Source: an uncultured delta proteobacterium (GTDB taxonomy: Bacteria > Desulfobacterota > Desulfuromonadia > Geobacterales > DSM-12255). From it: a DNA stretch of 64,000 nucleotides. The stretch is from NCBI GenBank assembly GCA_963787125.1, contig CAWBBV010000007.1, forward strand, positions 160,001-224,000, read 5' to 3'. Position numbers and translations under genes: made by a program. How positions within the stretch are numbered: the first letter of the stretch is position 1; each line of letters opens with the position of its first letter. The notes beneath the pieces are model-generated. The model saw nothing but the letters and a program-made list of their open reading frames with translations, did not search any database and had not been told where the DNA came from. Positions 48,049 to 64,000 of this stretch are shown here, in pieces.

Positions 48049-48057
48049 TCAACGTCC

Positions 48058-48777
48058 TTAGTAGTTTCCGCCGGTCAGCACTGCTGTCACACTCCCGACT
48101 GTTACCTTGGTTTGCGCTTTGACCGGGATCCTCCTGGCGTCATCAGTCAACCAGATATACGCCCCCCGCTTCCCTTCGAAAACACCTTCCGCTTTGACCA
48201 TAGGCTCCAAAACTATCGTGTCAAACTCCCCTGCAGGCACTTTTATCCGCTCTCTTCTCAGTACGCGGATTTCGATTCGGTGTAGCTGCTTACTGTCCAG
48301 AATATTAATATAGAGCGACTTTCCAGGCTCCAGAGTCTGGTAGCGGACATAATAGAAGCTTGAATAAATATCAAAGGTTTCTGTTTCAAGCGGGATGAAG
48401 AGATGCTCGCCGTTTTTCTTGTCAAAAAAATGGGCGGTCTTCTCCGTAGGGTTGAAGCTAATCTCCCGATTCCTGACACGAGACCCCTCCTTGAAAAGCA
48501 TCTTGAAGTTTCTGGTCGTTCCGGGGAACTCTCCCTGTTTTTCTAGAATGCTCTCAGTTCGGTCATCAACTGGAAAGAATGTGGAAAGCCAGTCGTTGGA
48601 TCTGGCGGTTGAGAGAATCTTCCGGACCTCACCTTCGTCAACTATTTCCTGCGTCGCAACGCCGACAGGAATACCTGTCCAACTGAGGCTGTAGATGAGT
48701 TTTTCAGGTATCTTAGGCTCGGCGAAGGAGGGGGTAGCTGCGAGAAGAATTATGAGGAGCGGGAAGATTAGTTTCAT
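48058..48777 (-). CDS. DUF3108-like exported protein
   Basis: Signal peptide, E.L.Y..SW.G, VPAGEF, WLTDD.RRIPV. Confidence 0.75.
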   Translation of the reverse strand: MKLIFPLLIILLAATPSFAEPKIPEKLIYSLSWTGIPVGVATQEIVDEGEVRKILSTARSNDWLSTFFPVDDRTESILEKQGEFPGTTRNFKMLFKEGSRVRNREISFNPTEKTAHFFDKKNGEHLFIPLETETFDIYSSFYYVRYQTLEPGKSLYINILDSKQLHRIEIRVLRRERIKVPAGEFDTIVLEPMVKAEGVFEGKRGAYIWLTDDARRIPVKAQTKVTVGSVTAVLTGGNY

Positions 48778-48795
48778 ATAGTCAGACAATAGTAG

Positions 48796-49003
48796 TCAGG
48801 AGTCAGTCTTCAGCTAGGAGACTGTCGGAATTAGAATAAATCTGCTGCAAATCCGTCTGAACGGTCCATATTTATCCGCTTTCTTGGTCAATAGGACGAC
48901 TATTGACCTGCAAAATCGACTAAATCTGTCCTCGTCCAGCCGAATTTTCGCTTTTATTTCCTAAGTCCGACAGACTCCTGAAAAGCTTTATTCTGACTCC
49001 TGA
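48796..49003. mobile_element. MITE-like element (48816-48979) nested inside an 11-bp inverted repeat
   Basis: Inner IRs aggagactgtcggaattag / ctaagtccgacagactcct; central hairpin ggtcaatag-gacga-ctattgacc; outer tcaggagtcag / ctgactcctga. Confidence 0.7.
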
Positions 49004-49010
49004 ATGCCGG

Positions 49011-51296
49011 CTACTGTTTTGCCTCCTGCTTTTTCTCCTGAGTCGAATATTCACAACCTTCTTTCGGACATTTCAAGAACTCACCTGTCCGTTTGTAAAC
49101 CTTTTTCACCAGGAGTGGAAAGCCGCATTGCGGGCAGGGCTGTTCGATCGGCAGATCCCAGAGAGCAAACTTGCACTGCGGATAGCGGTTGCAGGAGTAG
49201 AACATTTTGCCGTAGCGGGATTTCTTTTCGATCAGCTCGCCTTCCTTGCATTCAGGGCAGACTACGCCTGTCCCTTTTGGCTTGTTAAGCGGTTGAATGT
49301 TCTTGCAGGCAGGATAGCCGGAACATGCGAGGTATTTGCCGTAGCGACCATCTTTTATCAACATCGGTTGGTCGCACTTTTCACATTTCTCTTCCGACAG
49401 TACCGGTTCGGCAACTTCGCTGCCATCCTGCACAAGCGGCCGGGTGTAGCGACAGCCTTCCCGATAACCACTACAGGCAATGAATTTGCCCCGCTTACCG
49501 AGTTTGACGGCAAGTTGTTGCCCACACTCGGGACAGTTTTCGGCCAGTGCCTCGGTTGTCAGCTCTTCTTTGCTGACTTCCCCTTCCTTTTGCTTCAAGA
49601 GTGCCGCAAAAGGGGTCCAGAACTCCTCTACCAACGGTTTCCACTGCTTCTCCCCCCGGGAGATCTGATCAAGCTCTTCTTCGAGTCCGGCAGTGAAGTT
49701 GTAATCAACGTATCTGGTAAAGTGAGTTGTCAAAAGATCACTCACAATCATACCGATATCTTCCGGGAAGAAACGTTTCTTGTCGAGACGGCAGTATTTG
49801 CGTTCAACCAGGGTGTTCATGGTGCTGGCATAGGTTGACGGTCTGCCGATGCCGTACTCTTCGAGAGTTTTGACCAGTGTTGCCTCAGTATAGCGTGGCG
49901 GTGGCTGAGTGAAATGCTGTTCCGGCAGAAGTTCCTGCAGCGGCAACTGATCCCCCTCTGTCAGCGGCGGCAAGGTGCCTTCACGTTCTTCTGTTTCATC
50001 ATCAATCCCCTCAGTGTAGAGCTTCATAAAGCCGGCAAAGCGAACAACGGTGCCAGCGGCACGGAAGGTGTATCCTTTGCCCGCAGAGATATCAACCGAA
50101 GTCTGATCCAGCAGCGCCTCTGCCATTTGACAGGCAACGGTTCTCTTCCAGATAAGATCATAAAGCTTGAACAGGTCAGGGGAGAGATATTTTTTCAATT
50201 CAAGCGGAGTCTTGGAAATGTAGGTCGGCCTGACCGCTTCGTGAGCCTCCTGGGCATTTTTGGATTTATTTTTGTAAAATCGCGGCTTTGCCAAAGCATA
50301 ATCTTTGCCGTAAAGAGAGGTTATCACCTCTTTCGCCTCATCCAGCGCTTGATTGGAGAGGGCAACACTGTCAGTACGCATATAGGTGATAAGACCGACA
50401 GTCCCTTCGCCGACATCAATCCCCTCGTAAAGTTTCTGGGCAGTTGACATGGTTTTCTTAGCAGAATAGCCGAGCTTTCTGGAAGCCTCCTGCTGGAGCG
50501 TCGAGGTAGTGAATGGCGGGGAGGGCTGCCGCTTGCGCTCGCTCTTTGTTACTTTATCGACCCTGTAAGCTGCTGGTGCAAGGGTTGCAACAAGCCCGTC
50601 AGCAGCCGCTTTGTCCGGAATGTCAAACTTGGCCAGCTTCTTTCCCGCCGCTTCGATGAGATTTGCCTTGAACGGCTGTTCGCCTTTACCGGAAAGTTTC
50701 GCTCCGATGGTCCAATACTCCTGTTCGATGAACGCCAGAATCTCCTTTTCCCGTTCACAGACAAGCCGCAAAGCCACCGACTGCACCCGCCCGGCAGAAA
50801 GCCCGTAACGGATTTTTTTCCAGAGAAAGGGAGATAGATTAAAACCTACCAGATAGTCCAGAACTGACCTGGCTTGTTGGGCATCAACCAGATCGATGGC
50901 AATGTCGCGCGGGTTTTCTACCGCTTCTATGATCGCCCCTTTGGTGATTTCGTGGAATACTACCCGCTTGATCGGAATGGTGCTCTTTTTGCCGGTCAGT
51001 CCCAGCGCTGCCAGAAGATGCCAGGAAATCGCCTCACCCTCCCGGTCGGGGTCAGTTGCAAGGAGAAGAGTGTCGGCGTCTTTCAGCGCTTTTTTGATGG
51101 CGTCGAGATGTTTTTTGCTTTCCGGCAGGACAGCATATTTCGGTTCAAATCCGTTTTCGATATCGACCGAACCCTGCTTGCTCGGCAGTGCCCGAACATG
51201 CCCGAAAGAAGCGAGGACCTGATAACCCGGCCCCAGGAATTTCTCAATGGTTTTCGCCTTTGCCGGCGACTCGACGATGACAAGTTTGTTTGACAT
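49011..51296 (-). CDS. topA: DNA topoisomerase I
   Basis: VESPAKAKTI, DPDREGE, ITYMRTDS, GIGRPSTY, C4 zinc ribbons. Confidence 0.97.
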   Translation of the reverse strand: MSNKLVIVESPAKAKTIEKFLGPGYQVLASFGHVRALPSKQGSVDIENGFEPKYAVLPESKKHLDAIKKALKDADTLLLATDPDREGEAISWHLLAALGLTGKKSTIPIKRVVFHEITKGAIIEAVENPRDIAIDLVDAQQARSVLDYLVGFNLSPFLWKKIRYGLSAGRVQSVALRLVCEREKEILAFIEQEYWTIGAKLSGKGEQPFKANLIEAAGKKLAKFDIPDKAAADGLVATLAPAAYRVDKVTKSERKRQPSPPFTTSTLQQEASRKLGYSAKKTMSTAQKLYEGIDVGEGTVGLITYMRTDSVALSNQALDEAKEVITSLYGKDYALAKPRFYKNKSKNAQEAHEAVRPTYISKTPLELKKYLSPDLFKLYDLIWKRTVACQMAEALLDQTSVDISAGKGYTFRAAGTVVRFAGFMKLYTEGIDDETEEREGTLPPLTEGDQLPLQELLPEQHFTQPPPRYTEATLVKTLEEYGIGRPSTYASTMNTLVERKYCRLDKKRFFPEDIGMIVSDLLTTHFTRYVDYNFTAGLEEELDQISRGEKQWKPLVEEFWTPFAALLKQKEGEVSKEELTTEALAENCPECGQQLAVKLGKRGKFIACSGYREGCRYTRPLVQDGSEVAEPVLSEEKCEKCDQPMLIKDGRYGKYLACSGYPACKNIQPLNKPKGTGVVCPECKEGELIEKKSRYGKMFYSCNRYPQCKFALWDLPIEQPCPQCGFPLLVKKVYKRTGEFLKCPKEGCEYSTQEKKQEAKQ

Positions 51297-51333
51297 ATGT
51301 ACCTGTTATTATAGTTTTATTTTAATAATGCGT

Positions 51334-52419
51334 TCATGATAGTGAAAACAACTTCCCCGGAATCTGCATAACAGCGCCTTGCAGCTCAAGGCGAAGGAGC
51401 ATAACGGAAACAGCTGCGACTGTCAATCCGCTCCGGACGGTCAGCTCATCGATATGCAGAGGTTTATCGGCTAGTAATCGACACATCTGCTCTTCATCAG
51501 CACTGAAACTGAACCCCTGATTTTGAGCCCACAGGGGAAGATTAACGCTCTCCGGCGGGAGTTCTCCCATAATATCGGCGACGGTTTCAACAAGTTTCGC
51601 CCCCTGTTTTATGAGGCTATTCGTGCCACGGCTTGCCCGGAAGTTAATGTTCCCGGGGACAGCAAAGACCTCCCGTCCCTGTTCCAGGGCGAATCGGGCA
51701 GTTATGAGCGAACCGCTCTTTTCTGCGGCTTCAACAACAAGCACTCCTCTCGACATGCCGCTGATAATTCTGTTGCGCCGGGGAAAGTTGCTGGCATCCG
51801 GCTGGGTGCCGGGGGGGAATTCGCTGACAATGGCAGCTTTTTCCTCCATCTGCCGGTAAAGCTGCCGGTTCTCGGCAGGATAAACGAGATCAATGCCGCA
51901 GCCAAGCACCCCGACAGTGGCGCCGGACACCTGCAGCGCGCCTTTATGTGCGGCAGCATCAACCCCCATTGCCAGGCCTGAAACAATTGTTACCCCTTGT
52001 TCGGCCAGCTCACGAGCAAATTTTGCGGTAACAGACAGGCCGTAATCCGATGCCCGGCGGGAGCCGACAATAGCAATCGCTGTTTTTGCAGCCGGGAGCT
52101 TGCCTTTCAGGTAAAGGTATGGAGGCGGATCGGAAATCTCTTTTAGCAGCACGGGGTAGTCGTCATCAAGCAGCGTCACCAGTTTTGCACCGCTTTTGTT
52201 AAGAGCAGCGGCGGCGAGCTCTGCTTCCCGGCTGTAATCATGATTGATTAGCGAGAGTGCGGCCGAGGAATTTACCCCTTTAATACGGGATATCTCGTCA
52301 AGCGATGCCGCCAAAGCTTTGGCCGGTGAACCGAAATGTTCAATCAGACGTCGATAGGTTACATTCCCCACCAGCGGCACTGAGCGCAGCGCAAACCAGT
52401 AAAAAGGATCATCAGTCAT
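51334..52419 (-). CDS. dprA: DNA processing protein
   Basis: IVGSR, SGLAMGVD, FPRRNRIISG, SGSLITA. Confidence 0.95.
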   Translation of the reverse strand: MTDDPFYWFALRSVPLVGNVTYRRLIEHFGSPAKALAASLDEISRIKGVNSSAALSLINHDYSREAELAAAALNKSGAKLVTLLDDDYPVLLKEISDPPPYLYLKGKLPAAKTAIAIVGSRRASDYGLSVTAKFARELAEQGVTIVSGLAMGVDAAAHKGALQVSGATVGVLGCGIDLVYPAENRQLYRQMEEKAAIVSEFPPGTQPDASNFPRRNRIISGMSRGVLVVEAAEKSGSLITARFALEQGREVFAVPGNINFRASRGTNSLIKQGAKLVETVADIMGELPPESVNLPLWAQNQGFSFSADEEQMCRLLADKPLHIDELTVRSGLTVAAVSVMLLRLELQGAVMQIPGKLFSLS

Positions 52420-52440
52420 TTATCGTTATAGCCAAAAATA

Positions 52441-53514
52441 TCAGCGCCCCTTCTTCATCTCCAGCCTGTCGCCCTTATAGATGGTATCAATACTTTTTAT
52501 TACAAGGGCAGTTGACGTATTTTCGGCTGTAGCAACTATAAGCAGTGCCCCGATAACATCAACAGGCAGGTCGTAATCTGATTTGGAAAAGTAATCTATC
52601 TCTACCTTCACCTTACGCACAACATAGAGAATGTTGCCGGGCTGCACACCCTGGCGGCTCCCAAGGTCGATATAGGCAATATCACCGGCAGCTACAGCCT
52701 GAATGCCGGTTCTGGTTTCCACTATATATCCCGAAAGATCAACTTCAGGAGCTTTAAGCACGATTTCCTTTTTCCCGCTCTTATATGGCAAAAGGACAGC
52801 TCCTGGCTCAATCTCCAGGAAAGTCTCGGTGATAAGTCCCTTGGAGCTTTTGTCAGCCATTTCGGTCAGCTGGATAACCCCTAAAGGGATTGCTTTGTAG
52901 CCCAGGATCTGATTTGTTACCGGATGGCTTATCTGTGAATGCCGCTTGTAGACATTGAAGCGATCACCGGCCTTAACCCCCTGCCTGCGGCCCATGTCAG
53001 TGTAGATAACATCATCAACGGCAAAGATCTGCCGGTTGTGCTGACCGGCTATAACAATGCCGACAGGTTTGAAGTCATCACCGGCTATAAAACCTTCACC
53101 GCCATTGAGCGTGAAGTAGCGTTCTTCTGTTGTCTGTTCCGGCGCTGCAGCAAATTGTGGAGATGCACCCACCGGAGCAGCCTTTGGTGCCCCGGAGCTT
53201 GCTGCCGCTTCTGCTTGAGGCTGAGCAGCCGTCTCTTTTCTCACGGTCTCAATCTCGATTCTGTCAGGGTAAACTTTCAGTTTCTGACCTGGAAAGATAA
53301 AATGGGGATTCAAAATCTTGTTGGGATTACGAGCCCAGAGGTCAGGCCAGTAGTGCGGATCTTTCATGAAGCGTTCTGAAAGCCCCCAAAGAGTATCCCC
53401 TTTTTTGACGATATAAACTGTCGGCTCACCATTCTGGCCGGCATATCCGGCTCCGCAGACAAAAAGTGTTGAAACTAGAGCAGCCGCAGCTGCCAGGCAT
53501 CTGAAGAATCTCAT
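52441..53514 (-). CDS. LysM peptidoglycan-binding protein
   Basis: YIVKKGDTLWGLS..WPDLW..NPHFIFPGQ; typical dprA neighbour. Confidence 0.9.
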   Translation of the reverse strand: MRFFRCLAAAAALVSTLFVCGAGYAGQNGEPTVYIVKKGDTLWGLSERFMKDPHYWPDLWARNPNKILNPHFIFPGQKLKVYPDRIEIETVRKETAAQPQAEAAASSGAPKAAPVGASPQFAAAPEQTTEERYFTLNGGEGFIAGDDFKPVGIVIAGQHNRQIFAVDDVIYTDMGRRQGVKAGDRFNVYKRHSQISHPVTNQILGYKAIPLGVIQLTEMADKSSKGLITETFLEIEPGAVLLPYKSGKKEIVLKAPEVDLSGYIVETRTGIQAVAAGDIAYIDLGSRQGVQPGNILYVVRKVKVEIDYFSKSDYDLPVDVIGALLIVATAENTSTALVIKSIDTIYKGDRLEMKKGR

Positions 53515-53533
53515 ATACAACCTCGCTAACTCT

Positions 53534-54253
53534 CTATTTCCCGTCAAGCTGTTGTTTAGCTCTAACTGCGGCATCACTTCCAGGATATTGCTCCATAACC
53601 TGCCGCAAGACGGCAGCCCCTTTTGCTCCGGAATCGAGACGATACCACGCCATGCCGATACGCAGCAGTGCCTCAGAACTTCTCTTTTGGGGAGGATTCA
53701 TCTCAAGAACCCTGGTGAAAGAGTCTATTGCCTCTTTATAGCGACCCTCACTGAAATGGCACTCGCCCAACCAGTAGCGGGCATTTGCCGCATATTCACT
53801 CTCCGGATATGCGGCAATAAAAGAGTTGAATGCCTCGGCAGCTTCCCTGTAGTTGTTAGCGCTAAAAAGGCCAAAAGCCTTCATGTAGGCGGCCTGGACA
53901 GACTCTTCACGCCCGGCGGCAATGCTCTCCTGATTTACAAGCTCGATAGTAGCTGACTGCCGGGTTGACGCTTCAAGCTGGGCGAGCCTGTTTGAGAGAA
54001 TCTTCACCCGCCCCTGCAGTGCGTCATATTGCAACTGCAGTTCCTTTTCAGCTATGACCCGCTTGAGCGACTGCTCCTTAAGTTCATGAATCTGAACGTT
54101 AGCGGCAGTAAGTTCAGCCTTGGCGCTATTGTGAGCCTGCATAACCTGCTCCAGCCGCCCCTCCAGACTGCTCTGCCGCTGGACAATCAGATCATTGCCG
54201 GCACATCCGGTTAAACCGGTAAAGAGAAACAGAAAGGGAGCGATTCGCCGCAC
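53534..54253 (-). CDS. cpoB: Tol-Pal TPR lipoprotein
   Basis: Lipobox LTGC, coiled coil, YPES.YA.NA.YWLGE. Confidence 0.82.
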   Translation of the reverse strand: MRRIAPFLFLFTGLTGCAGNDLIVQRQSSLEGRLEQVMQAHNSAKAELTAANVQIHELKEQSLKRVIAEKELQLQYDALQGRVKILSNRLAQLEASTRQSATIELVNQESIAAGREESVQAAYMKAFGLFSANNYREAAEAFNSFIAAYPESEYAANARYWLGECHFSEGRYKEAIDSFTRVLEMNPPQKRSSEALLRIGMAWYRLDSGAKGAAVLRQVMEQYPGSDAAVRAKQQLDGK

Positions 54254-54333
54254 AGGGGTCTCCTTGAAGTAACTGCTGGACTTTTGCAAAATCATCTAAA
54301 TCAAGGACAATTAAAGCCTTTCACCCGCTTTTG

Positions 54334-55065
54334 TCAAGGAGAAAGCCGCAGGAAAGCAAGCGATTTGAGCGTTCTGCCGGTATTTGCAAAAATGAAGGCA
54401 TCAAGGAAACGGTTCACTGCAATGATTTCATCAGCATCGAAATGAACATGCCCGAATCTGCCGGTTTTCATCGCTTCAAGCAGGAGCGAGATACTTGTCC
54501 CCCCGAGTCTTTCCCCCCCTCGGCAGCAGCGTTGACAGTGTATCCCGTGACTACCACCATTTTGCCAGAAGCCGCCTGTAACTGCCAGCGTCACGCCACA
54601 GTCTGCGCAGCTTTCCAGTGGCGGTCGGTACCCCAGGATGTTGAGCAGATTGATTTCGAAGAAATGCCGGTCGGAAGGGACAACAGGGTGGAGGTCAAGC
54701 TGTTCAAGGTAGCTGCTTAAAAGTCTGAAGACTCTTTTGTTGGCAAGATTTTCCGGTGTTATAGCTGAAACCAGTTCAGCGGCATAGCCGGCATGAGCAA
54801 TCCGCGCAAAGTCCTGGCGAATGCCGGGATAGATCGTCACAGCCTCGGCATCCCTGATAGTGACAAGGCCTTCGGCAGGGATGAAGTTGACAGCAAGACG
54901 GGCAAAGAGTTCAAAAACGCCGCCGAAGCGTTTAACGCTGCTCCTGGCGCCGCGGGCGATACCGCTGATCCTGCCATGCTCTTTCGTATAAAGATGAATA
55001 ATCTTGTCGGTCTCGCGATAATCCATCATGCCGACAACGAGCGCTTCATCGGTAAGGCTTTTCAT
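54334..55065 (-). CDS. recO: DNA repair protein RecO
   Basis: DYRETDKII, ARGARSS.KRF, LGYRP..C..C zinc motif. Confidence 0.92.
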   Translation of the reverse strand: MKSLTDEALVVGMMDYRETDKIIHLYTKEHGRISGIARGARSSVKRFGGVFELFARLAVNFIPAEGLVTIRDAEAVTIYPGIRQDFARIAHAGYAAELVSAITPENLANKRVFRLLSSYLEQLDLHPVVPSDRHFFEINLLNILGYRPPLESCADCGVTLAVTGGFWQNGGSHGIHCQRCCRGGERLGGTSISLLLEAMKTGRFGHVHFDADEIIAVNRFLDAFIFANTGRTLKSLAFLRLSP

Positions 55066-55592
55066 GCTGTAATTGCCGTGTTCAGCGGAGCTTTTCTTCT
55101 GAGCTGGATAAAGTCGGCAGGTGGATCAAAAGAGATGCGCTCCCTTGCAATCTCCTCGAAATCTTCCGCATCGATACAAGGGAAAAAAGAGTCTCCCTCA
55201 AGTTCAAGATCGACAACTGTCAGGTAAATTTTTTCCGCAAAAGGCAGCGCCCGCGTATAAACCTCGCCGCCGCCACAGATAAAGACCTCGCCATCCGCCT
55301 CTGCCAGCCGCAGTGCAGCTGCAACAGAAGCGGTTACCAGCGTTCCTGCCGGAGCATAATCGGGCTGTCTGCTTACCACGATGGTCTTTCGGCCCGGCAG
55401 CGGCCTGCCGATACTCTCGAACGTTTTTCGCCCCATAATAACGGTATGCCCAAAAGTAAGCTCCCGAAACCTGCTCATATCCGCCGGGATACTCCAGGGG
55501 ATAGCACCATCTCTGCCGATGACCCGATTTCTGCTCATTGCCGCAATAATTGAAACAGTCACAATCCCGTTCCCGCCCTTGTTTTCAGCCAT
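55062..55592 (-). CDS. folA: Dihydrofolate reductase
   Basis: NRVIG..IPW..P.D, MGRKTFESIGRPLPGR, GGGEVY, GDSFFP; start reassigned because the ORF-track extension runs through repeat R1. Confidence 0.93.
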   Translation of the reverse strand: MAENKGGNGIVTVSIIAAMSRNRVIGRDGAIPWSIPADMSRFRELTFGHTVIMGRKTFESIGRPLPGRKTIVVSRQPDYAPAGTLVTASVAAALRLAEADGEVFICGGGEVYTRALPFAEKIYLTVVDLELEGDSFFPCIDAEDFEEIARERISFDPPADFIQLRRKAPLNTAITA

Positions 55593-55656
55593 TCCTGTCC
55601 AGCCCTTAAAAACCTTTACAATTCCCAGTTCCCGCCTTTCTTTACCTCTACCTGTA

Positions 55657-55715
55657 CCTGATTTTCCTTCCCAGCCAGCGCAAAGGTTTGGTGATCCGCC
55701 AGGAGAGAGAGGAAT
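55657..55715 (-). repeat. Direct repeat R1 (glycosyltransferase-tail repeat)
   Basis: Core gccagcgcaaaggtttggtgatccgcc at 55674-55700; minus strand reads SSLSWRITKPLRWLGRKIRYR*. Confidence 0.95.
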
Positions 55716-55826
55716 CAACTACATTACTGATGACTCAATAGTCTTTCGTACCCGAATCAATAAAACTTTATCAAATAAATCCGACATGCTATACAGTAAT
55801 ATAAAAGTAACCTTGGAGTAATAAAT

Positions 55827-56114
55827 ATGCCACAGGTCACGCCTTTCGATAAAACCATTATCAATTTCATGTCCAGCCATGGAGTATCTCAAATTGCCGT
55901 CTTCGGTTCGTATGCACGCGGTGAAGCTCGTCCCGACAGCGATCTAGACCTATTAGTCCGTTTTTCGGAACAAAAAAGCCTCCTCGGAGTGATCCGCCTG
56001 GAGCGCGAGTTATCGGAACTGCTTGGAGTCAAAATTGACCTGTTAACCGAACAGGCTATCAGCCCATACCTTATTGACCGGATCAGGAAGGAACTCAAGG
56101 TAATTGCCTTATGA
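55827..56114 (+). CDS. Minimal nucleotidyltransferase antitoxin (MNT), copy 1
   Basis: FGSYARGE..DSDLD. Confidence 0.9.
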   Translation: MPQVTPFDKTIINFMSSHGVSQIAVFGSYARGEARPDSDLDLLVRFSEQKSLLGVIRLERELSELLGVKIDLLTEQAISPYLIDRIRKELKVIAL

Positions 56115-56440
56115 TCCGCGACGACAGGGTCTATCTGTCACACATCATTGATGCTCTTCAACAGATTAGCGAATATACTAAAAACCTCGATTACGATGGT
56201 TTTAACGCAGCCCGCATTATTCAGGATGCTGTTATACGGCAATTCGAGATCATTGGCGAAGCTACAAAAAATCTTTCCGAAGAGTTTCGAATGAAACAGC
56301 CGGATATTCCGTGGAAAGACCTGGCAGGGTTCCGTGACAAGCTGATTCATCAATATTTCGGCGTCGACATCTCCATTGTATGGCGCTCAGTAGTCGATGA
56401 TATGCCTGTTTTACTGAAAGAATTCGGGGAGATTAAATAA
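56111..56440 (+). CDS. HEPN/DUF86 RNase toxin (HepT-like), copy 1
   Basis: EIIGEA, RDKLIHQY (RX4HXY). Confidence 0.9.
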   Translation: MIRDDRVYLSHIIDALQQISEYTKNLDYDGFNAARIIQDAVIRQFEIIGEATKNLSEEFRMKQPDIPWKDLAGFRDKLIHQYFGVDISIVWRSVVDDMPVLLKEFGEIK

Positions 56441-56518
56441 ACCCTGAGACTGCGTTCAGACACCCTCTCGACATGGCCCGATTCACCCTTCACCCTTCAC
56501 GTCTCACCAGATTCCCCC

Positions 56519-56560
56519 GCCAGCGCAAAGGTTTGGTGATCCGCCCGGAGAGGGAGGAAT
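56519..56560 (-). repeat. Direct repeat R2
   Basis: Same 27-bp core at 56519-56545; minus strand reads KPLHSSLSGRITKPLRW. Confidence 0.95.
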
Positions 56561-56689
56561 GTAGGGGCTTCATGTAAGGACAGATCTTATTAATAATAAA
56601 TTGTCCCCGAAACTCCCTAACAGAAAAACCCACTCTGGATTCTCCTGCAGCTGAGACTATCCGCCCATGGTTCCTGCATTTCCTCAGGA

Positions 56690-57004
56690 TCATGCAGCCT
56701 TGAGCAGTGGCACTTCGTCCAACTCTTTCAAATGATCCCTTTCCACTTTCCAAAGATCAACCGCCAACTGTGCATTCATCCAGAACTGGGCACTATTGCC
56801 AAAAAGCCGTGACAAGCGAAGCGCCATAAGCGGTGTTAATGCACGCCTCCCGTTCAGAAGTTCATTTACACTCTGTCGTGACACCTTGAGAGCAGCAGCC
56901 AGAGAGGAGACTGTGAGAGAATAGTCCGGCATAAACTCTTCGCGAAGAAGAGACCCTGGGTGGGTTGGTGCAATCATACGACTCTTTAAATTAGTTATGG
57001 ACAT
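56690..57004 (-). CDS. higA: HigA antitoxin
   Basis: PTHPGSLLREEF, ALRLSRLFG..AQFWMNAQ. Confidence 0.92.
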   Translation of the reverse strand: MSITNLKSRMIAPTHPGSLLREEFMPDYSLTVSSLAAALKVSRQSVNELLNGRRALTPLMALRLSRLFGNSAQFWMNAQLAVDLWKVERDHLKELDEVPLLKAA

Positions 57005-57017
57005 GGTAACCCTCTTT

Positions 57018-57299
57018 TTAGTGGTAGTCGGTAATTTCAACGTCATAGGCATCGCCGTCTTTAAAGATGAAACATATACGCCACTGCGCATTGATTGAAA
57101 TGGAGTATTGACCAGACCTGTCATCTATTAAAGCATGGAGACGATTACTTGGAGGGACTTTTAAATCTTCAATTGTGACGGCATAAGTCAGAAATTCAAG
57201 CCGCCGTATTGCTCGCTGGACAAGGTTTGGTGGCAGGTTACGCGAGCGTCCGGTCAGATAAAGAAACTCGGTTTGCTTGTCTGCAAAGGTCCTGATCAT
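57018..57299 (-). CDS. higB: HigB/RelE-family toxin
   Basis: MIRTFADK, PPSNRLH.L, SISIN.QWRICF, DYH. Confidence 0.92.
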   Translation of the reverse strand: MIRTFADKQTEFLYLTGRSRNLPPNLVQRAIRRLEFLTYAVTIEDLKVPPSNRLHALIDDRSGQYSISINAQWRICFIFKDGDAYDVEITDYH

Positions 57300-57305
57300 G
57301 GAGGA

Positions 57306-57334
57306 AGTGTAATATGTAACGTGACAAGTGTCAA
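57306..57334 (-). promoter_or_regulatory. Sigma70-type promoter of higBA
   Basis: TTGACA-17 nt-TACACT, 6 nt upstream of the higB ATG. Confidence 0.75.
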
Positions 57335-57388
57335 TAGCTTGCCATCCTTCCCCGTACCTACCGTAAATTCCATATTCTTCGCGCCTTT

Positions 57389-57516
57389 CTTCTACCTTTC
57401 CTAGTCCCCCGCACCTCAAATCTCAAACTTGATCCCCGATCCCAATTCCCAGATCACGACTTGACTCAAAACAGTTCCCAGTTCCCGCCTTTGCTTCACA
57501 ACAGTTCCCTGATCCC
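57389..57516. repeat. 128-bp spacer block S, copy 1
   Basis: Near-identical to 60451-60578. Confidence 0.9.
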
Positions 57517-57637
57517 AGATCCCGCCTTTCAGCCTTTGCGTATCTACAGTCTAAGGCCTTTTCACCTGTTTGCTTCCGCAGTCAATCTGCTGTAAAGTAT
57601 TGGCATTATCAAAATATTATCCCTTCAAGGTATAGAG

Positions 57638-57910
57638 GTGGACATGAAATCTGCAAACGCTACAACACTTGATCTCTCCAGCCTCCCGGAACAGGCACGA
57701 CAGGAAGTCACCGACTTCTACAATTTCCTGAAAACAAAATATCGCCAACGTACCGCACCGCTAAAAACATCTATTAAGAATAAATCATCAGCAACAACCT
57801 TGCTGACCGATTCAAAATTTATTGGTATGTGGAGCGACCGTCCGGAAATGAACGACCCTACAAAATGGGTAAGTGAATTAAGACAAAACTCTTGGAGTCG
57901 CCATGAGTAG
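57638..57910 (+). CDS. DUF2281-like antitoxin
   Basis: LPEQARQEV.DF..FL; FIGMWSDR..WV.ELR; overlaps the PIN gene. Confidence 0.78.
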   Translation: MDMKSANATTLDLSSLPEQARQEVTDFYNFLKTKYRQRTAPLKTSIKNKSSATTLLTDSKFIGMWSDRPEMNDPTKWVSELRQNSWSRHE

Positions 57911-58289
57911 CAACCAACTCCTGGGCACCGACATACTTGTTAATATTGCCCGAGGCAATCTTGCTGCCATAGCACACTTAAACAACCTCTTATCAGATGG
58001 TAGAGTTCATGTCAGCGCTGTGACTGAAATGGAACTTGTCGTCGGTTGTCGTAACAAATCAGAACTACGTGAACTCTCCCGGCTTCTCAAGCAGATGACT
58101 ATAATCCCGATCACCCCTGAAATCACAACAACTGCGATAAAACTGTTACATACATATCGCTTGAGCCACGGACTCCTTATTGCTGATGCGATTATTGCTG
58201 CCACTGCCATAGTCAGCAAACGCATCCTCTTAAGCGGAAATGCAAAACATTTCTCAATGATCGAGGCATTACAATTCAAGGCAAATTAA
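57903..58289 (+). CDS. vapC: PIN-domain (VapC) toxin, first catalytic Asp replaced by Gly
   Basis: LLGTDIL (canonical DT), TEME, ADAIIAATA, N.KHF. Confidence 0.82.
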   Translation: MSSNQLLGTDILVNIARGNLAAIAHLNNLLSDGRVHVSAVTEMELVVGCRNKSELRELSRLLKQMTIIPITPEITTTAIKLLHTYRLSHGLLIADAIIAATAIVSKRILLSGNAKHFSMIEALQFKAN

Positions 58290-58408
58290 CTTACCTTCTC
58301 CGATTCCCGCCTCTACTTTCTCGCCTCTGCCTTTGCGTCTCTACAGTTCCCAATTCCCGCTTTTGCTTCACAACAGTTCCCTGACCCCGCCTTTCTTTAT
58401 CTTTACCT

Positions 58409-58603
58409 CTATCTGTACCTGATTTTTCTTCCCAGCCAGCGCAAAGGTTTGGTGATCCGCCAGGGTAGGGAGGAATGAAGGGCTTTAAGTCGAGCAGTTT
58501 TCGTCTTGAGCTCAACCAGCAGTTTATCCCGGCTCTCTGCCTCGGCCAGGTTTGCAGAGCTTATCTTAAGCAGGTACTGAAAGGTCTCTTCAGTTGAGGC
58601 CAT
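58409..58603 (-). pseudogene. Orphan coiled-coil plus WRITKPLR tail, containing repeat R3 (core 58435-58461)
   Basis: ..DKLLVELKTKTARLKALHSSLPWRITKPLRWLGRKIRYR* parallels the GT2 C-terminus. Confidence 0.7.
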
Positions 58604-58626
58604 GAGGTTTGGTGAGCTGACCTGCC

Positions 58627-59136
58627 TTAAGGTTTGACCAGTTGCGCCAGATCCTTTAGCAGCAGAAAAAGGTGGTATGGATCTGTAGGACTGGGCTCAA
58701 AGCCCCATCTCAGATACCAATTCCGGGCTGCATCATCCTTCGCATGGATGAGCATTGCTCGAATCCCGGCAATATCAGCCGCCTGCAAGGTTCGGAGCAT
58801 GGCATCCTTCAACAGGGCACGACCCAGACCGCCCCCATGATGATTCCGATCAACCGCAAGACGAGCCAGAATCATTACCGGTACCGGATGCCTGGCCAAC
58901 CCCTTGACGACACGTCCTGCTGCCGTCGCCGGTTCGACGCTGCCCACAACCAGAGTGTAAAAACCCACTACATTGCCGCTCTGGCCGCAAACGTAGGTTT
59001 GCGAGCTGTTGGCTTTCTGACTGGTCAGGGCAAAACGCAGTAAAAACTGGTTCAGAGCCGGCTGACCGCAATCAAACGAATTGACATTGTCGGCTACTTC
59101 AAGTTTGCGGACAGTATCATAAGAGAATAGGCTCAC
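58627..59136 (-). CDS. GNAT acetyltransferase toxin (TacT/AtaT-like)
   Basis: FDCG..LN.FL, VPVMILARLAVD..G.G.G, AKDD.A..WY..GF. Confidence 0.9.
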   Translation of the reverse strand: MSLFSYDTVRKLEVADNVNSFDCGQPALNQFLLRFALTSQKANSSQTYVCGQSGNVVGFYTLVVGSVEPATAAGRVVKGLARHPVPVMILARLAVDRNHHGGGLGRALLKDAMLRTLQAADIAGIRAMLIHAKDDAARNWYLRWGFEPSPTDPYHLFLLLKDLAQLVKP

Positions 59137-59411
59137 CCCAGAACCCCAGGTTCAGTGAGCAAGCGTTTCAGGCGGGGATATGATTGTACCGGGCGGTCGA
59201 GAGCCTGCTGGAATGCCTGCCACTCGGCATCATTCAGCTCAAAGCGGCGGCGTTCGGCAAGAGTTTGGTTAGCAGCACTTATCCCGGCATCCAAAAGAAA
59301 TTCGCTGACGCTCTTGTGGCAAGATCGTGCCGCCTCCTGCAGCAACTGCTTGACAGACAGGTTGGCACGGACATCAATCCGCTCTGTTTTTGAAATGGTC
59401 AAAGTAGGCAT
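59133..59411 (-). CDS. DUF1778 RHH antitoxin (TacA-like)
   Basis: KTERIDVR, AA....SVSEF, F..ALD.P. Confidence 0.88.
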   Translation of the reverse strand: MPTLTISKTERIDVRANLSVKQLLQEAARSCHKSVSEFLLDAGISAANQTLAERRRFELNDAEWQAFQQALDRPVQSYPRLKRLLTEPGVLG

Positions 59412-59615
59412 TGGGTGCTCCTTTAATATCATATGTGTCAACTATATCGTACGGACAATGTACTGACAATAAAATTATTTTGACGGGAGCCTCTCCCCAT
59501 AAACTCCCCAGCTACTCAACCATTCAGCTCTTTCCTTTGCGTCTCTACAGTTCCCAGTTCCCGCCTCTGCCTTAAAACAGTTCCCTGACCCCGCCTTTCT
59601 TTACCTTTACCTCTA

Positions 59616-59674
59616 CCTGATTTTCCTTCCCAGCCAGCGCAAAGGTTTGGTGATCCGCCAGGAGAGGGAGGAAT
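59616..59674 (-). repeat. Direct repeat R4
   Basis: Core at 59633-59659. Confidence 0.95.
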
Positions 59675-59786
59675 CAACGACATTACTGATGACATAATAG
59701 TCTTTCGTACCCGAATCAATAAAACTTTATCAAATAAATCCGACATGCTATACAGTAATATAAAAGTAACCTTGGAGTAATTAAAT

Positions 59787-60074
59787 ATGCCACAGGTCAC
59801 GCCTTTCGATAAAACCATTATCAATTTCATGTCCAGCCATGGAGTATCTCAAATTGCCGTCTTCGGTTCGTATGCACGCGGTGAAGCTCGTCCCGACAGC
59901 GATCTAGACCTATTAGTCCGTTTTTCGGAACAAAAAAGCCTCCTCGGAGTGATCCGCCTCGAGCGCGAGTTATCGGAACTGCTTGGAGTCAAAATTGACC
60001 TGTTAACCGAACAGGCTATCAGCCCATACCTTATTGACCGGATCAGGAAGGAACTCAAGGTAATTGCCTTATGA
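59787..60074 (+). CDS. MNT antitoxin, copy 2
   Basis: Protein identical to copy 1. Confidence 0.9.
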   Translation: MPQVTPFDKTIINFMSSHGVSQIAVFGSYARGEARPDSDLDLLVRFSEQKSLLGVIRLERELSELLGVKIDLLTEQAISPYLIDRIRKELKVIAL

Positions 60075-60400
60075 TCCGCGACGACAGGGTCTATCTGTCA
60101 CACATCATTGATGCTCTTCGACAGATTAGCGAATATACTAAAAACCTCGATTACGATGGTTTTAACGCAGCCCGCATTATTCAGGATGCTGTTATACGGC
60201 AATTCGAGATCATTGGCGAAGCTACAAAAAATCTTTCCGAAGAGTTTCGAATGAAACAGCCGGATATTCCGTGGAAAGACTTGGCAGGGTTCCGTGACAA
60301 GCTGATTCATCAATATTTCGGCGTCGACATCTCCATTGTATGGCGCTCAGTAGTCGATGATGTGCCTGTTTTACTGAAAGAATTCGGGGAGATTAAATAA
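60071..60400 (+). CDS. HEPN/DUF86 toxin, copy 2
   Basis: Differs from copy 1 by Q>R and M>V. Confidence 0.9.
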   Translation: MIRDDRVYLSHIIDALRQISEYTKNLDYDGFNAARIIQDAVIRQFEIIGEATKNLSEEFRMKQPDIPWKDLAGFRDKLIHQYFGVDISIVWRSVVDDVPVLLKEFGEIK

Positions 60401-60450
60401 ACCCTGAGACTGCGTTCAGACACCCTCTCGACAAGACCCGATTCACCCTT

Positions 60451-60578
60451 CTTCTACCTTTCCTAGTCCCCCGCACCTCAAATCTCAAACTTGATCCCCG
60501 ATCCCAATTCCCAGATCACGACTTGCCTTAAAACAGTTCCCAGTTCCCGCCTTTGCTTCACAACAGCTCCCTGACCCC
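60451..60578. repeat. Spacer block S, copy 2
   Basis: Near-identical to 57389-57516. Confidence 0.9.
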
Positions 60579-60604
60579 GCCTTTCTTTACCTTTACCTCT
60601 ACCT

Positions 60605-61810
60605 CTACCTGATTTTCCTTCCCAGCCAGCGCAAAGGTTTGGTGATCCGCCAGGAGAGGGAGGATTCAAGGGCATCTACTCGTAGTTGTAAATATTGAAT
60701 CATTTCGTCTTTTTCCGATTTGGATAAAGAATTGACTGATTGAGCAGCTAACATGTCAGTACTTTTTGTTGTTACAATCAATCTTGATCTATCACGACAT
60801 ACTTTTGAGCCTTGCCAAAAAGTAAAAATTTGCCACTTTATATAATCATATCTACTGCGCAATTTGATTATTGCCAAAAGCTTACCGAATTGATAATGAG
60901 CCTCTGTTGCCTTTAATGAACCTTCAATTTCGCGATGCAAAAACAACAACTCCATGTATCTGTTTTGATATGAGTCTATTATTGAGCGTGCATCTGCGAT
61001 CCAAGCATTATTAAAATCAGGGGCATAATCAGGTTTCGAGTTAAAAAATTCTCTATAAGTGCCTAAAACGACTTCAGACGCACCGAAGCCCCCGTGCAAT
61101 TTTTTTAGATATCTCCATGTAAGTCTGAACGTGGGGAGGTAATGATAATAAGAAAGTCTTTCATCGTACCAGAGTCGCCAGCCAAAACATCTAAGCGCAA
61201 AACAAATTTCGGAATCTTCCCCTGAACTCAGGTTCGTGCCATGTCTACCAGAAAGGGTAAAGGTAAAACCATTATTGATGATTTCTTCCCACGCTGACTT
61301 TCTGATGCTCAGCCCAGCTCCCCACAGGTACCCTCTCGAGTCTGCTACATATCCGGTAGTTTCCGATTGAGGGCCAACAGCGTAGCACCCTTTGAATTGT
61401 TCAAACCATGGCGGGGCAACCGTCTCAAAGCTTGGCAATCCTAAACCACCACATGCTCCCACGTCAGGGTGTGCAGACATAATTTTATAAACGATATCAA
61501 TCCATTCAGGACAAATCCAGTTGTCATCGTCAATAAAGCAAATGTATTCGTATTGAGATTCAGCAATACCTCTAAGTCTGGCATTTTTAAGGCCTAACTC
61601 GTGTTCGGTTATGATCTTGGTGACTTGTTTGAGATGATAAGAGAAGAGATTATCTGCGATTTGAGAAGTTTCGTCAGTAGAGGCATTATCTACTAGTATT
61701 ACTTCAAACTGAATGTAATTAGGAATTATAAGATTATTGACATGATATATTGTTTGAGGCAATTTTTCTGCGCTATTATGACAGCAAATGATTAGGCTGA
61801 CGCCGTTCAT
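60605..61810 (-). CDS. Family 2 glycosyltransferase with short coiled-coil and SWRITKPLR tail (contains repeat R5, core 60625-60651)
   Basis: SLIICCHN, VDNASTD, FIDDD, GED; AT-rich body switching to the GC-rich repeat at its 3' end. Confidence 0.9.
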   Translation of the reverse strand: MNGVSLIICCHNSAEKLPQTIYHVNNLIIPNYIQFEVILVDNASTDETSQIADNLFSYHLKQVTKIITEHELGLKNARLRGIAESQYEYICFIDDDNWICPEWIDIVYKIMSAHPDVGACGGLGLPSFETVAPPWFEQFKGCYAVGPQSETTGYVADSRGYLWGAGLSIRKSAWEEIINNGFTFTLSGRHGTNLSSGEDSEICFALRCFGWRLWYDERLSYYHYLPTFRLTWRYLKKLHGGFGASEVVLGTYREFFNSKPDYAPDFNNAWIADARSIIDSYQNRYMELLFLHREIEGSLKATEAHYQFGKLLAIIKLRSRYDYIKWQIFTFWQGSKVCRDRSRLIVTTKSTDMLAAQSVNSLSKSEKDEMIQYLQLRVDALESSLSWRITKPLRWLGRKIR

Positions 61811-61852
61811 GAAGTTACCGATATCCCAATAAAATAATCGTATTAATTTGGC

Positions 61853-62608
61853 TTAAAACCCTGACAATAAACATAGTTTTTCATAAACATACCTGTATTT
61901 ATTGTCGACAGATTCACTGGAACTTGTCCTTTTTAATTTAATGTCTGGAAATGATCTGTCGGTTTTGGCATTTGTTAATGTTTCAATCCTATCAAGTCCT
62001 TCGGTACTTACAATCTGGTCATAATGAATGAATAACCATTCACCTTGACTCATATGTGATTCTAATATGTTAGTATATATTGAGTGCCAAACTTCCAATG
62101 CATATTTATAACTCATGGTTAGGGAGTGTAAATATTCCATGTCTTTGCATTCTTTAACTATGCTAAGTGCAGTGATTGATGGCTCCCTGAAAACGCAAAT
62201 AAATACCGTGTTTTCCAGAAAAGGTCGCCAGAAAGGAAGAGTGAAACTGAACCTTGGATCTTTATAGCAAAAAGGGGATTTGTCTACGGCAATAGATATC
62301 TTGTTTTCTATGCTTTTTGAAGGATAAAGCTGTGTTCCTATGGGCATAATTTCTAGCCATCTTTGCCCATCTGAAAACTTTCTTCCAGAAATTAACCTTT
62401 TGATTCTGTCATTTAATTTGAAACGCACATTTGATAAAATTTGCTCATTTATTCCGTTAATAAAGGGATCCTCGAAAAACCCCTTGGGATTACTCTGGCG
62501 AGGAGGCAGCAAATTGTCCCCCATAAAATAGCCAGACTTAGCCAAGGTGCCAGCCACCATGCTCGTGCCGCTTCTACCGGACCCAAGGATTATACAATTG
62601 CGCATCAT
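61853..62608 (-). CDS. Sulfotransferase-family P-loop protein
   Basis: GSGRSGTS, NPKGFFED, KDPR, REP, YD.I. Confidence 0.8.
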   Translation of the reverse strand: MMRNCIILGSGRSGTSMVAGTLAKSGYFMGDNLLPPRQSNPKGFFEDPFINGINEQILSNVRFKLNDRIKRLISGRKFSDGQRWLEIMPIGTQLYPSKSIENKISIAVDKSPFCYKDPRFSFTLPFWRPFLENTVFICVFREPSITALSIVKECKDMEYLHSLTMSYKYALEVWHSIYTNILESHMSQGEWLFIHYDQIVSTEGLDRIETLTNAKTDRSFPDIKLKRTSSSESVDNKYRYVYEKLCLLSGF

Positions 62609-62612
62609 TGTC

Positions 62613-63857
62613 TCACAGTAATATTTTGCAATTCTCAGGAAGTTCTTGCTGATATTTTTCGGCTAAATCTCTTATCGCCTCTGGATTATACAATATGTTG
62701 GTCCAGTTCTGTGGGGATGTGCTATTTACACCATGTTTATCAGCAAAATACTTTTCAGTTCCATGATGTACGACAAATTTGTACAAAAAATGGTTAACAT
62801 AACTAGGATTAGCATTATGATTAATATCATTAATCAATTTCCGCGTTAGTGACCTGTCTTGCTCTGTTTGGTCAGGATAGCAAAATATATACTGTGCCAT
62901 TACGTTTATATTATTATCAGTAAGTTCTTTAACGAAGGCTACTATCAACTCATTGCTAACATTAGGTTTGTTCATACTATTACGTTCTCTGATCGAACCT
63001 GATTCAATGCCTATCCTGACCTCTTTAACGCCAGACTTGGCCATCAAGTTTACGTACATCCCGTAATCGCTTTTTATCTGTAATCCGAAAATATGGCCGT
63101 AAGGCTTATTACTTATACCAGAAAGCGCTTCGAACAACATTTTAGTCCGGTTACTATTTACATTCAAGTTTGAATCGTTAAACATAACCATTTTAACGTC
63201 TTTTATCGACTCAATTTGATCAACAACAGATTCAATGTCGTGATAATAGTACGTGTGATTCTGTGTGCAGAAATTACAATTATTAGGACAGCCTCTTGTA
63301 GTTATTACAGGCAGTATGCCGTTATAATCTGATAAATCCATTTGACTATAATCAGGGACGTATTTTTTTGAAGCAATTAATGGCTCTGTAATGATTCCCT
63401 TATTAGTTATTGCAGCCAAGATACCTTCTTCTCCATAACCGCTAACAACTGTATCAAATATGTTCAACTCTAATAATTCTTTCTCATTGTATGAAGCGCA
63501 AGGGCCACCAGCAATACACCTCACATGTTTACATAATCTTAAAGCCATTTCTTTTGAATATCTAAACGTTGGATAAGAAAGATGAAAACCGACAAGATCC
63601 GGATTCATATCCAATATTCTAGTGCAATAATTATCCATCTCTCCATAGGCAAAATGATAAACATCGTTGTGTGAATCAATTTCAAAGTCTCTATTATATG
63701 CAATAGAATCTGGATATTTTTTATTCAATTCCACATTGAAATCAATTATATGAATCTCATGCCCTGCGTTTTTTAATTCTGTTGACAGATATGCAAGGCC
63801 AACAGGAGGGCCAGATCTTGTATTTATAAACGGAGCTCTAATCAACACAATTTTCAC
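62613..63857 (-). CDS. B12-binding-domain radical SAM protein
   Basis: PPVGLAYL..L...GH, GGP, RGCPNNCNFC, GIESGS. Confidence 0.88.
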   Translation of the reverse strand: MKIVLIRAPFINTRSGPPVGLAYLSTELKNAGHEIHIIDFNVELNKKYPDSIAYNRDFEIDSHNDVYHFAYGEMDNYCTRILDMNPDLVGFHLSYPTFRYSKEMALRLCKHVRCIAGGPCASYNEKELLELNIFDTVVSGYGEEGILAAITNKGIITEPLIASKKYVPDYSQMDLSDYNGILPVITTRGCPNNCNFCTQNHTYYYHDIESVVDQIESIKDVKMVMFNDSNLNVNSNRTKMLFEALSGISNKPYGHIFGLQIKSDYGMYVNLMAKSGVKEVRIGIESGSIRERNSMNKPNVSNELIVAFVKELTDNNINVMAQYIFCYPDQTEQDRSLTRKLINDINHNANPSYVNHFLYKFVVHHGTEKYFADKHGVNSTSPQNWTNILYNPEAIRDLAEKYQQELPENCKILL

Positions 63858-64000
63858 AAAACCAACTCCTCCAACTGAGAATGATTCACTTGAGCGCTAA
63901 AGCAGTACCGAATGAATATTTAGGTTCAAGGTATTTAAGGAAATCAGTTATGATTTATCCATGATCAGCTGTTCTTTCGGTGAAAAAATATCTTGCCAAT

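Follow-up and report, generated by a model that had tools for sequence, protein, structure and literature searches.

Accretion of toxin–antitoxin operons among repeated glycosyltransferase gene ends at the border of a surface-glycan locus in an uncultured member of the Geobacterales

How do chromosomal toxin–antitoxin (TA) operons move when no mobility genes travel with them? Such movement is still poorly explained, and a 64,000-nucleotide stretch of an uncultured delta proteobacterium of the order Geobacterales (GenBank assembly GCA_963787125.1, contig CAWBBV010000007.1, positions 160,001 to 224,000 of the forward strand; hereafter the window) offers a repeatable setting in which to ask the question. 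Between folA and a gene for a GT2-family glycosyltransferase lie five predicted type II TA operons (by Pfam), in mixed orientations, and among them stand copies of the last codons of that glycosyltransferase gene. The region is an accretion zone for TA operons, and its place is fixed: a swappable surface-glycan locus ends there and core genes follow, namely folA in this genome and cysD, cysNC and SBP genes in relatives. What is repeated is the last ~17 codons of the terminal glycosyltransferase, with its conserved ...SLSWR[IL]TxPLR... tail, followed by a G-rich downstream spacer. Homology-driven recombination at this conserved coding patch is the explanation that we favour, with roughly even confidence, and we infer that recombination of the host's RecA type is at work rather than a dedicated recombinase.

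The repeated gene end and the operons between its copies

The source genome (G000) is a 4.2-Mb draft in 30 contigs, with the array on contig C7 (605 kb). The 27-nt core of the repeat, GCCAGCGCAAAGGTTTGGTGATCCGCC, is found exactly five times on the plus strand, at 55674, 56519, 58435, 59633 and 60625, which confirms the five identical, same-orientation cores reported in the initial annotation. None is expected by chance: dinucleotide shuffling of the window, done 100 times, gives a mean of 0.00, and there is no match even when up to three mismatches are allowed. Read in the direction of the gene, on the minus strand, the repeat unit comprises a tail of ~46-52 nt, the stop codon and then the spacer, which is built from hexamer and heptamer sub-repeats (AGGTAG/AGGTAA and GGCGGGAACTGGGAACTGT). 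The unit is thus longer than the 40-60 bp first given to the repeat, the spacer adding 55-180 nt of downstream DNA in four of the five copies. Arranged by position, the features of the array and its edges are as follows.

55062-55592, minus strand: folA (dihydrofolate reductase; Pfam DHFR_1, E 4e-54), the conserved core-genome edge of the array
55616-55721, minus strand: repeat copy 1, a bare tail (core 55674-55700) with a short spacer, directly upstream of folA; junction X-O-S
55827-56440, plus strand: MNT-HEPN TA operon, copy 1 (Pfam NTP_transf_2, HepT-like)
56515-56566, minus strand: repeat copy 2, consisting of the tail alone (core 56519-56545), in which Gly replaces Trp and similarity ends at the 3' edge of the core; junction B*-O-Y
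56690-57299, minus strand: HTH antitoxin (56690-57004) and HigB-like toxin (57018-57299); Pfam HTH_3, HigB-like_toxin
57384-57550, minus strand: core-less spacer copy between the HigBA and PIN cassettes, from alignment
57644-58289, plus strand: DUF2281-like antitoxin and PIN toxin (57903-58289; E 3.5e-14), the DUF2281 match scoring 23.3 bits, below its cut-off of 26.5
58291-58483, minus strand: repeat copy 3, spacer and tail (core 58435-58461), 92% identical to copy 5 over 141 nt; junction B*-O-S
58409-58625, minus strand: 64-codon glycosyltransferase stump carrying the tail of copy 3, recognised by homology with a GT2-family gene end on metagenome contig L067
58627-59411, minus strand: TacT-like GNAT toxin (58627-59136) and TacA/DUF1778 antitoxin (59133-59411); Pfam Acetyltransf_7, TacA1
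59530-59685, minus strand: repeat copy 4, a bare tail (core 59633-59659) with spacer; junction X-O-S
59787-60400, plus strand: MNT-HEPN TA operon, copy 2, part of an 875-nt duplication at 98% identity
60446-60680, minus strand: repeat copy 5, the live GT2 3' end (core 60625-60651) with the full sub-repeat spacer
60605-61810, minus strand: GT2 glycosyltransferase gene (Pfam Glycos_transf_2), the terminal gene of the low-GC glycan island
61853-63857, minus strand: sulfotransferase and B12-binding radical SAM genes (Pfam), in an island of 34-41% GC

As proposed in the initial annotation, the last copy is the true coding 3' end of the GT2 gene, whose protein ends ...SSLSWRITKPLRWLGRKIR*, and the tail is GC-rich (55.9% over the last 68 nt) against an AT-rich gene body (39.5% GC). 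A low-GC body joined to a resident tail makes the gene a chimera, a structure that agrees with the suggestion that the tail site serves in swapping the glycan locus as well.

The copies share sequence to very different extents. Copies 5, 3 and 4 have 141-158 nt in common at 87-92% identity, copy 1 shares 102 nt and copy 2 the tail alone, with its Trp codon altered from TGG to GGG; by alignment count, no site of the 27 in the core varies across all copies, compared with five in the 15 nt to its left and one in the 19 nt to its right. The boundaries of the repeat differ among copies on both sides. On the gene side, copy 5 continues into the live GT2 gene and copy 3 into the 64-codon stump, copy 2 retains ~20 nt of the stump upstream of its tail, and copies 1 and 4 run into unrelated DNA right from the tail. 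A sixth copy, of the spacer without the core (57384-57516, 96% identical to 60446-60578 over 133 nt), implies that the 1.9-kb interval around it is in fact two cassettes, HigBA and PIN. Larger still is a duplicated unit of 875 nt, comprising spacer, tail and MNT-HEPN operon, in which 55618-56491 matches 59577-60451 at 98% identity. Copy 2 (B*-O-Y) and copy 1 (X-O-S) bracket the first MNT-HEPN operon as attL and attR bracket an inserted element.

The open reading frames (ORFs) between the repeats are TA genes or the glycosyltransferase stump, and nothing else. Pfam bears out the count of five modules in four families (MNT/HepT twice, HigB/HTH, PIN and TacA/GNAT), the DUF2281 partner of the PIN toxin falling below its cut-off. 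Once acquired, such operons probably persist through their resistance to loss. A plasmid collection gave weak similarity to the TA genes only, a phage collection gave no match, and, for homologues of the TA genes in relatives, four of the five first loci have no tail motif within 1.5 kb and no notable direct repeats. Literature searches for TA operons flanked by direct repeats returned no comparable case among the matches listed.

Public sequencing runs contain at most 14% of the words sampled from the locus, and four of them gave short, low-depth contigs resembling single cassettes or tails. In sediment-metagenome runs X1 and X5 these carry the DUF2281/PIN cassette at 93-99% identity and diverge into unlike sequence precisely where the cassette ends, at window positions 57501, 57526 and 58290. 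A 130-nt contig in runs X2 and X3 joins spacer (57466-57514) to tail and stump (58430-58496).

The stump points to an older terminal gene. It resembles the end of a full-length GT2-family gene (>450 residues) in L067, with 74% amino acid identity over 62 residues and 84% DNA identity over 200 nt, and copy 3 is therefore read as the remnant of an older terminal glycosyltransferase. In L067 the core is conserved at 26 of 27 bases and is followed by a spacer with AGCGGGAACCGGGAACTG and then a 5'-truncated cysNC. The same contig has an insert of ~340 nt behind the glycosyltransferase tail (1380-1740), which holds one small reverse ORF without a Pfam match and is flanked by the direct repeat CAGGTTCGAGGTG.

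Recurrence at one junction in relatives

The relatives searched are draft genomes, one per species, and comprise 238 other genomes of the order; the family has 23 genomes in seven genera, and the order's other four families have 216. A scan with the motif pattern for near-identical, same-strand tails no more than 6 kb apart found pairs in four of the 23 family genomes (G000, G012, G013 and G016, from three of the seven genera) and in none of the 216. The design thus recurs beside glycan loci in relatives, as the initial annotation had anticipated, and always in the same order: the end of the glycan locus, the TA stack, then cysD, SBP or folA. The TPR-recO-folA order is kept in five congeners, among which the DNA upstream of folA varies. 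At this border the relatives show the following arrangements.

G003: glycan genes, a GT4-like gene bearing the remnant of a tail out of frame, then SBP-ABC-cysD-cysNC-folA
G010: one Phd antitoxin gene between the tail and cysD
G012: a PIN operon, with the live tail of a 326-residue gene on one side and an orphan tail on the other; the tails are 1.1 kb apart and agree at 26 of 27 core bases
G013: GT2, a terminal tail gene, HTH, PIN_3, antitoxin and RHH/ParE genes, an orphan tail, ParE and PIN operons, a second orphan tail, then cysD
G015: the empty state, a GT4 tail, ~90 nt, then cysD
G016: a live tail, DUF4160 and another pair, an orphan tail, then ParE, PIN, MNT/HepT, DUF2281/PIN and RelB/PIN operons

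In G012 the orphan tail sits on a frameshifted stump homologous to that of the window (161 nt, 70.8%), and the array extends, through a 36-nt exact low-complexity contig overlap, to a next contig with seven more TA-type pairs and an SBP gene. The gene bodies that end in the tail at this junction differ: G000 and G016 have GT2, G015 has GT4, and the genes of G012 and G013 are unnamed. Elsewhere in G016 (L129; G016:C39:11500-17000), two tails lie 146 nt apart at 2823 and 2677 on the minus strand; one ends a long ORF and the second is close to where the next ORF (833-2752) starts, as though that gene had absorbed a tail copy.

By genus, the cores encode ITKPLRW, ITGPLRW or LTAPLRK. Within a genome they are alike: 27 of 27 bases in G000, 26 of 27 in G012 and near-identical in G013 and G016. 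This combination, unlike between genera and alike within a genome, suggests that what matters is the identity of the partners and not one specific sequence.

Could the array be an artefact, repeats having been misjoined in a 30-contig draft? The genome is indeed a draft, its repeats are 50-230 nt long, one unit is duplicated at 98% and the public runs, with their low share of sampled words, afford no read check of the array. Assemblers collapse repeats, however, and do not create them. Each copy has its own flanks and substitutions, independent genomes show the same design, and short contigs from other samples span single cassettes and spacer/core junctions at 93-100% identity; misassembly is accordingly very improbable.

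The position of the exchange is fixed by genus g7 (G013 and G016), in which the junctions X-O-S', B*-O-S' and X-O-B' all occur. The X arm is common to the outer orphan tail of G013 (2697) and the orphan of G016 (6019), over 149 nt at 91.3%, and the S' arm to the inner orphan of G013 (4305) and the same G016 orphan, over 151 nt at 96.7%. The B arm links the live tail of G013 with its orphan at 4305 (67 nt, 80.6%), and between the live tail and the B' arm of the outer orphan the identity is 75-78% over 27-28 nt. These reciprocal products place the crossover inside the ~30-nt core, and the same reasoning applies in the window to copies 2 and 1, on either side of the first MNT-HEPN operon. Together with the recurrence of the design, the reciprocal products support the proposal that TA cassettes accumulate by recombination at the tail-coding DNA.

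The stumps invite a different account, in which the copies are stratified leftovers: imprecise right-side ends of successive glycan-locus replacements would have left the old tail and spacer behind and brought in a new tail with TA operons, and gene conversion would have followed. The end of the older glycosyltransferase on copy 3, with a full-length relative in L067, speaks for this, as do the homologous stump behind the PIN operon in G012, the gene body retained by the G013 orphan at 4305 and the lone out-of-frame tail remnant of G003, which stands at the same border without a TA operon. Upstream of the tail, however, three of the five window copies retain at most ~25 nt, and the reciprocal X and S' arms of G013 and G016 need a crossover at the core and not decay alone. 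Conversion tracts limited to 27-46 nt would in any case amount to recombination at the core, and we think this account improbable.

Host recombination or a recombinase encoded elsewhere

What, then, drives the exchange? In the explanation that we favour, each incoming terminal glycan gene would share a short coding patch with each resident copy, and general, homology-dependent recombination would repeatedly cross over within it. The events could be of three types: circularised fragments, bearing a TA operon together with a copy of the tail, would insert in the Campbell manner; tail copies would cross over unequally; and a single crossover in the tail would exchange one glycan locus for another. 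Each would leave an extra tail copy in the same orientation and sometimes the stump of a former terminal gene. This homology-driven explanation is based on cores that are genus-specific yet alike within a genome, on the varying extents of the repeats, on the duplicated unit and on the chimeric terminal genes. The 98% duplication of 875 nt and the varying extents are as expected from unequal crossing-over, and at the exchange point the partners are identical or near-identical in G000, G012, G013 and G016, whatever their sequence.

Several observations nevertheless weigh against plain homologous recombination. At only 27-46 nt, the patch common to all copies lies close to the minimum length at which RecA recombination is efficient; even so, exchange has returned to this point repeatedly in four genomes. 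All copies are in one orientation, and the invariance of the core (0 of 27 sites, compared with 6 of 34 in its flanks) has a chance probability of ~0.005. The public-run contigs are too short and of too low depth for strain-level variation or an excision product to be observable. In addition, integron-type integrases are encoded elsewhere in G000 and G013 and could act in trans.

These points lead to the principal alternative, in which the tail core is a true attachment site at which ~1-kb TA cassettes, each with its core, are inserted and excised by a recombinase whose gene lies elsewhere; we consider this unlikely. The candidates would be one of the two integron-type integrases on contigs C4 and C23 or XerC/D, acting on a coding att site without attC hairpins. 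Where integrases duplicate their target at the 3' end of a gene, the shared core typically measures ~30-46 nt, and such a site would fit the identity of the core in five copies with differing flanks, the strict single orientation of ~1-kb units, and the sets of attL-, attR- and attP-like junctions in the window and in G013 and G016. Integrases that score above the cut-off of TIGR02249 are, moreover, encoded by two genes in G000 (C4 and C23) and one in G013 (C10). A bolder version, in which the tail codons would form a hairpin-less, protein-coding 'integron' that stockpiles TA cassettes through such an enzyme (the C4 or C23 integrases or XerC/D) and doubles as a glycan swap point, seems to us somewhat less likely again.

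The search for machinery speaks largely against such a site. No match to PF00589, the family used for tyrosine recombinases, is present on the array contigs of G000, G003, G012, G013 and G016, and C7 has neither a serine recombinase (resolvase) nor a Y1 transposase. The absence of an integrase in view thus extends from the window to C7 and to the other array contigs, and no co-occurring recombinase is found on any of the five. Moreover, G012 and G016 have arrays with no TIGR02249 match above cut-off. The repeat boundaries vary, the core sequence differs between genera, and exact copies of the G000 core are present in no other genome or contig collection searched.

The two G000 integrases, at G000:C4:161732-162667 and C23:106715-107650, score 341 and 338 bits with TIGR02249 and lie in open frames of 467 and 470 amino acids. 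A shallow direct-repeat search of 20 kb around each gene gave no obvious cassette array; four 44-nt tandem repeats are present ~1 kb upstream of the C23 gene.

Does the repeat itself look like an integron site? Four repeat copies were folded on both strands with DNA parameters, and all eight folds are less stable than their shuffles (z +0.47 to +1.58), on which grounds an attC reading was rejected. The attC boxes have the consensus RYYYAAC (R'') and GTTRRRY (R'). No pair of them 50-150 nt apart occurs on either strand of 55590-60700, and of 15 control regions of equal size 14 gave none and one gave two. With neither hairpins nor attC boxes in the repeats, and with the array contigs free of recombinase genes, the dedicated integron-like attachment system first envisaged was not found. 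A dif/Xer position was likewise rejected: cumulative GC skew rises monotonically along the whole of C7 with no turn near the array, which is therefore not at the replication terminus, where dif lies. By eye, the window core has no 11-6-11 dyad of the 28-nt dif type, and the core of genus g7 has GGCGC-N6-GCGCC. Local GC skew is negative over 47600-64000, which fits a run of minus-strand genes and no replication landmark.

Whether the repeat recurs elsewhere in this genome and in relatives was a question raised in the initial annotation. The exact repeat is unique to the locus: there is no sixth core in the genome with up to three mismatches allowed, nor any by blastn; the other genomes of the order hold a single copy, with three mismatches, at a normal gene end in G010; and collections of species-genome and metagenome contigs contain no exact 23-mer of it. 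The peptide is another matter. Any DNA encoding WRITKPLRW was sought in 185,579 species genomes and in metagenome contigs, and 26 and 49 loci were found, respectively, with one copy each and 20-26 of 27 bases in common with the window core; the motif falls within the last 45 codons of an open frame at 17 of the 26 and 33 of the 49. Synonymous sites, suggested as a check for over-conservation, vary freely across these 75 loci. Free variation, single copies and terminal position together identify the peptide as a common C-terminal motif, and it also ends four other genes of G000, in different DNA. Literature searches on peptide motif strings gave no relevant paper.

Under either explanation the locus is a concrete, testable substrate in sediment bacteria of a non-pathogenic group. 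The variable glycan locus is bordered by a short coding patch that is conserved, and reciprocal junctions there mark the point of DNA exchange. If plain homologous recombination is responsible, then ~30-46 nt of DNA encoding a conserved protein motif suffices for integron-like stacks and for the swapping of surface-glycan genes; if a trans-acting recombinase is responsible, the locus represents a new kind of gene-capture platform.

Related systems and surrounding sequence

The array has much in common with sedentary chromosomal integrons and with clusters of attC sites lacking integron integrases (CALINs; Cury et al. 2016, PMC4889954; Richard et al. 2024, PMC13108822): ordered ~1-kb cassettes, same-orientation repeats, no adjoining integrase, and a richness in TA operons of mixed orientation with their own promoters. 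It differs from them in that its repeats are the coding 3' end of a neighbouring gene, without hairpin or R''/R' boxes, and in that its cassettes are all TA operons and are confined to one fixed syntenic junction. Tandem genomic islands at the 3' ends of tRNA and other genes, which are made by tyrosine integrases, likewise show the target 3' end as direct repeats (here five GT2 tails), stacked units and junctions like attL, attR and attP. The present units, in contrast, are ~1 kb, none carries an integrase and the five array contigs have none.

Two further comparisons concern elements that rely on the host. Xer-dependent elements (IMEX) and the pdif modules of Acinetobacter plasmids, some with TA genes, are small modules that bring no recombinase with them; they stack up at a short site that is repeated and, where known, use a host enzyme. 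The array differs in lying away from the terminus and in having direct rather than alternating inverted repeats. O-antigen and capsule loci are swapped by homologous recombination in conserved flanks. Cassettes of chromosomal integrons are reportedly shuffled by natural transformation (PMC12614218). The array resembles both in its variable glycan locus beside conserved genes, its chimeric border gene and its use of short repeats as homology. Here, however, the patch of homology is a coding tail of ~46 nt within the last gene of the locus, and its use leaves a growing row of tails with TA operons.

The low-complexity sequence of the spacer is not peculiar to the array, such repeats being common between genes throughout these genomes. 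Hexamer repeats (AGGTAA/AGGTAG and their complement; window 60582-60621) form a multicopy intergenic family in G000, often as inverted pairs, with further sites at C1:72402, C4:43901, C14:17840, C16:139768, C17:7025, C20:29832, C21:23657, C23:112258, C24:24028 and C26:61714. In relatives as well, gene stops are followed by arrays of heptamers (among them GGGAACT and GGGCTCA), and multicopy elements comparable to such intergenic repeats are on record for Geobacter metallireducens (PMC2700814). The idea that these spacers are general carriers of TA operons was rejected: of 24 other TA toxin genes in G000, only one has a tandem repeat of period 5-8 at a distance of up to 600 or 1000 nt, and for random segments the figures are 3.4% (600 nt) and 5.0% (1000 nt). 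Rfam has no family at E <= 1 within 54000-64000.

A second candidate for cassette ends, a pair of 122-nt repeats around an MNT-HEPN operon in G024, was also rejected, the repeats being copies of a polyamine-gene leader element. They lie at 4540-4661 and 7711-7832 of L057 (G024:C1), contain the palindrome CGTAGCGCTGCTACG and stand upstream of speA and of a saccharopine-dehydrogenase-like gene; their positions imply that the two copies bracket the polyamine genes together with the MNT-HEPN operon between them. The element is the multicopy leader element reported from G. metallireducens (PMC2700814).

At the core-genome edge, folA may truly start a few codons further in than annotated, judging by the FolA of G003, which begins MIAIIAAMSRN. 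On the other side, the glycan island, with its 34-41% GC against 50.8% genome-wide, also holds Wzt, a methyltransferase and a second radical SAM gene. Its far edge (G000:C7:230000-234000; L108 6000-9800) has an MNT/HepT-like TA operon (L108 8040-8794) and a PD-(D/E)XK_3 gene, with three tandem repeats of ~128 nt (6321-6945) and two of ~262 nt (9153-9558), followed by thiC.

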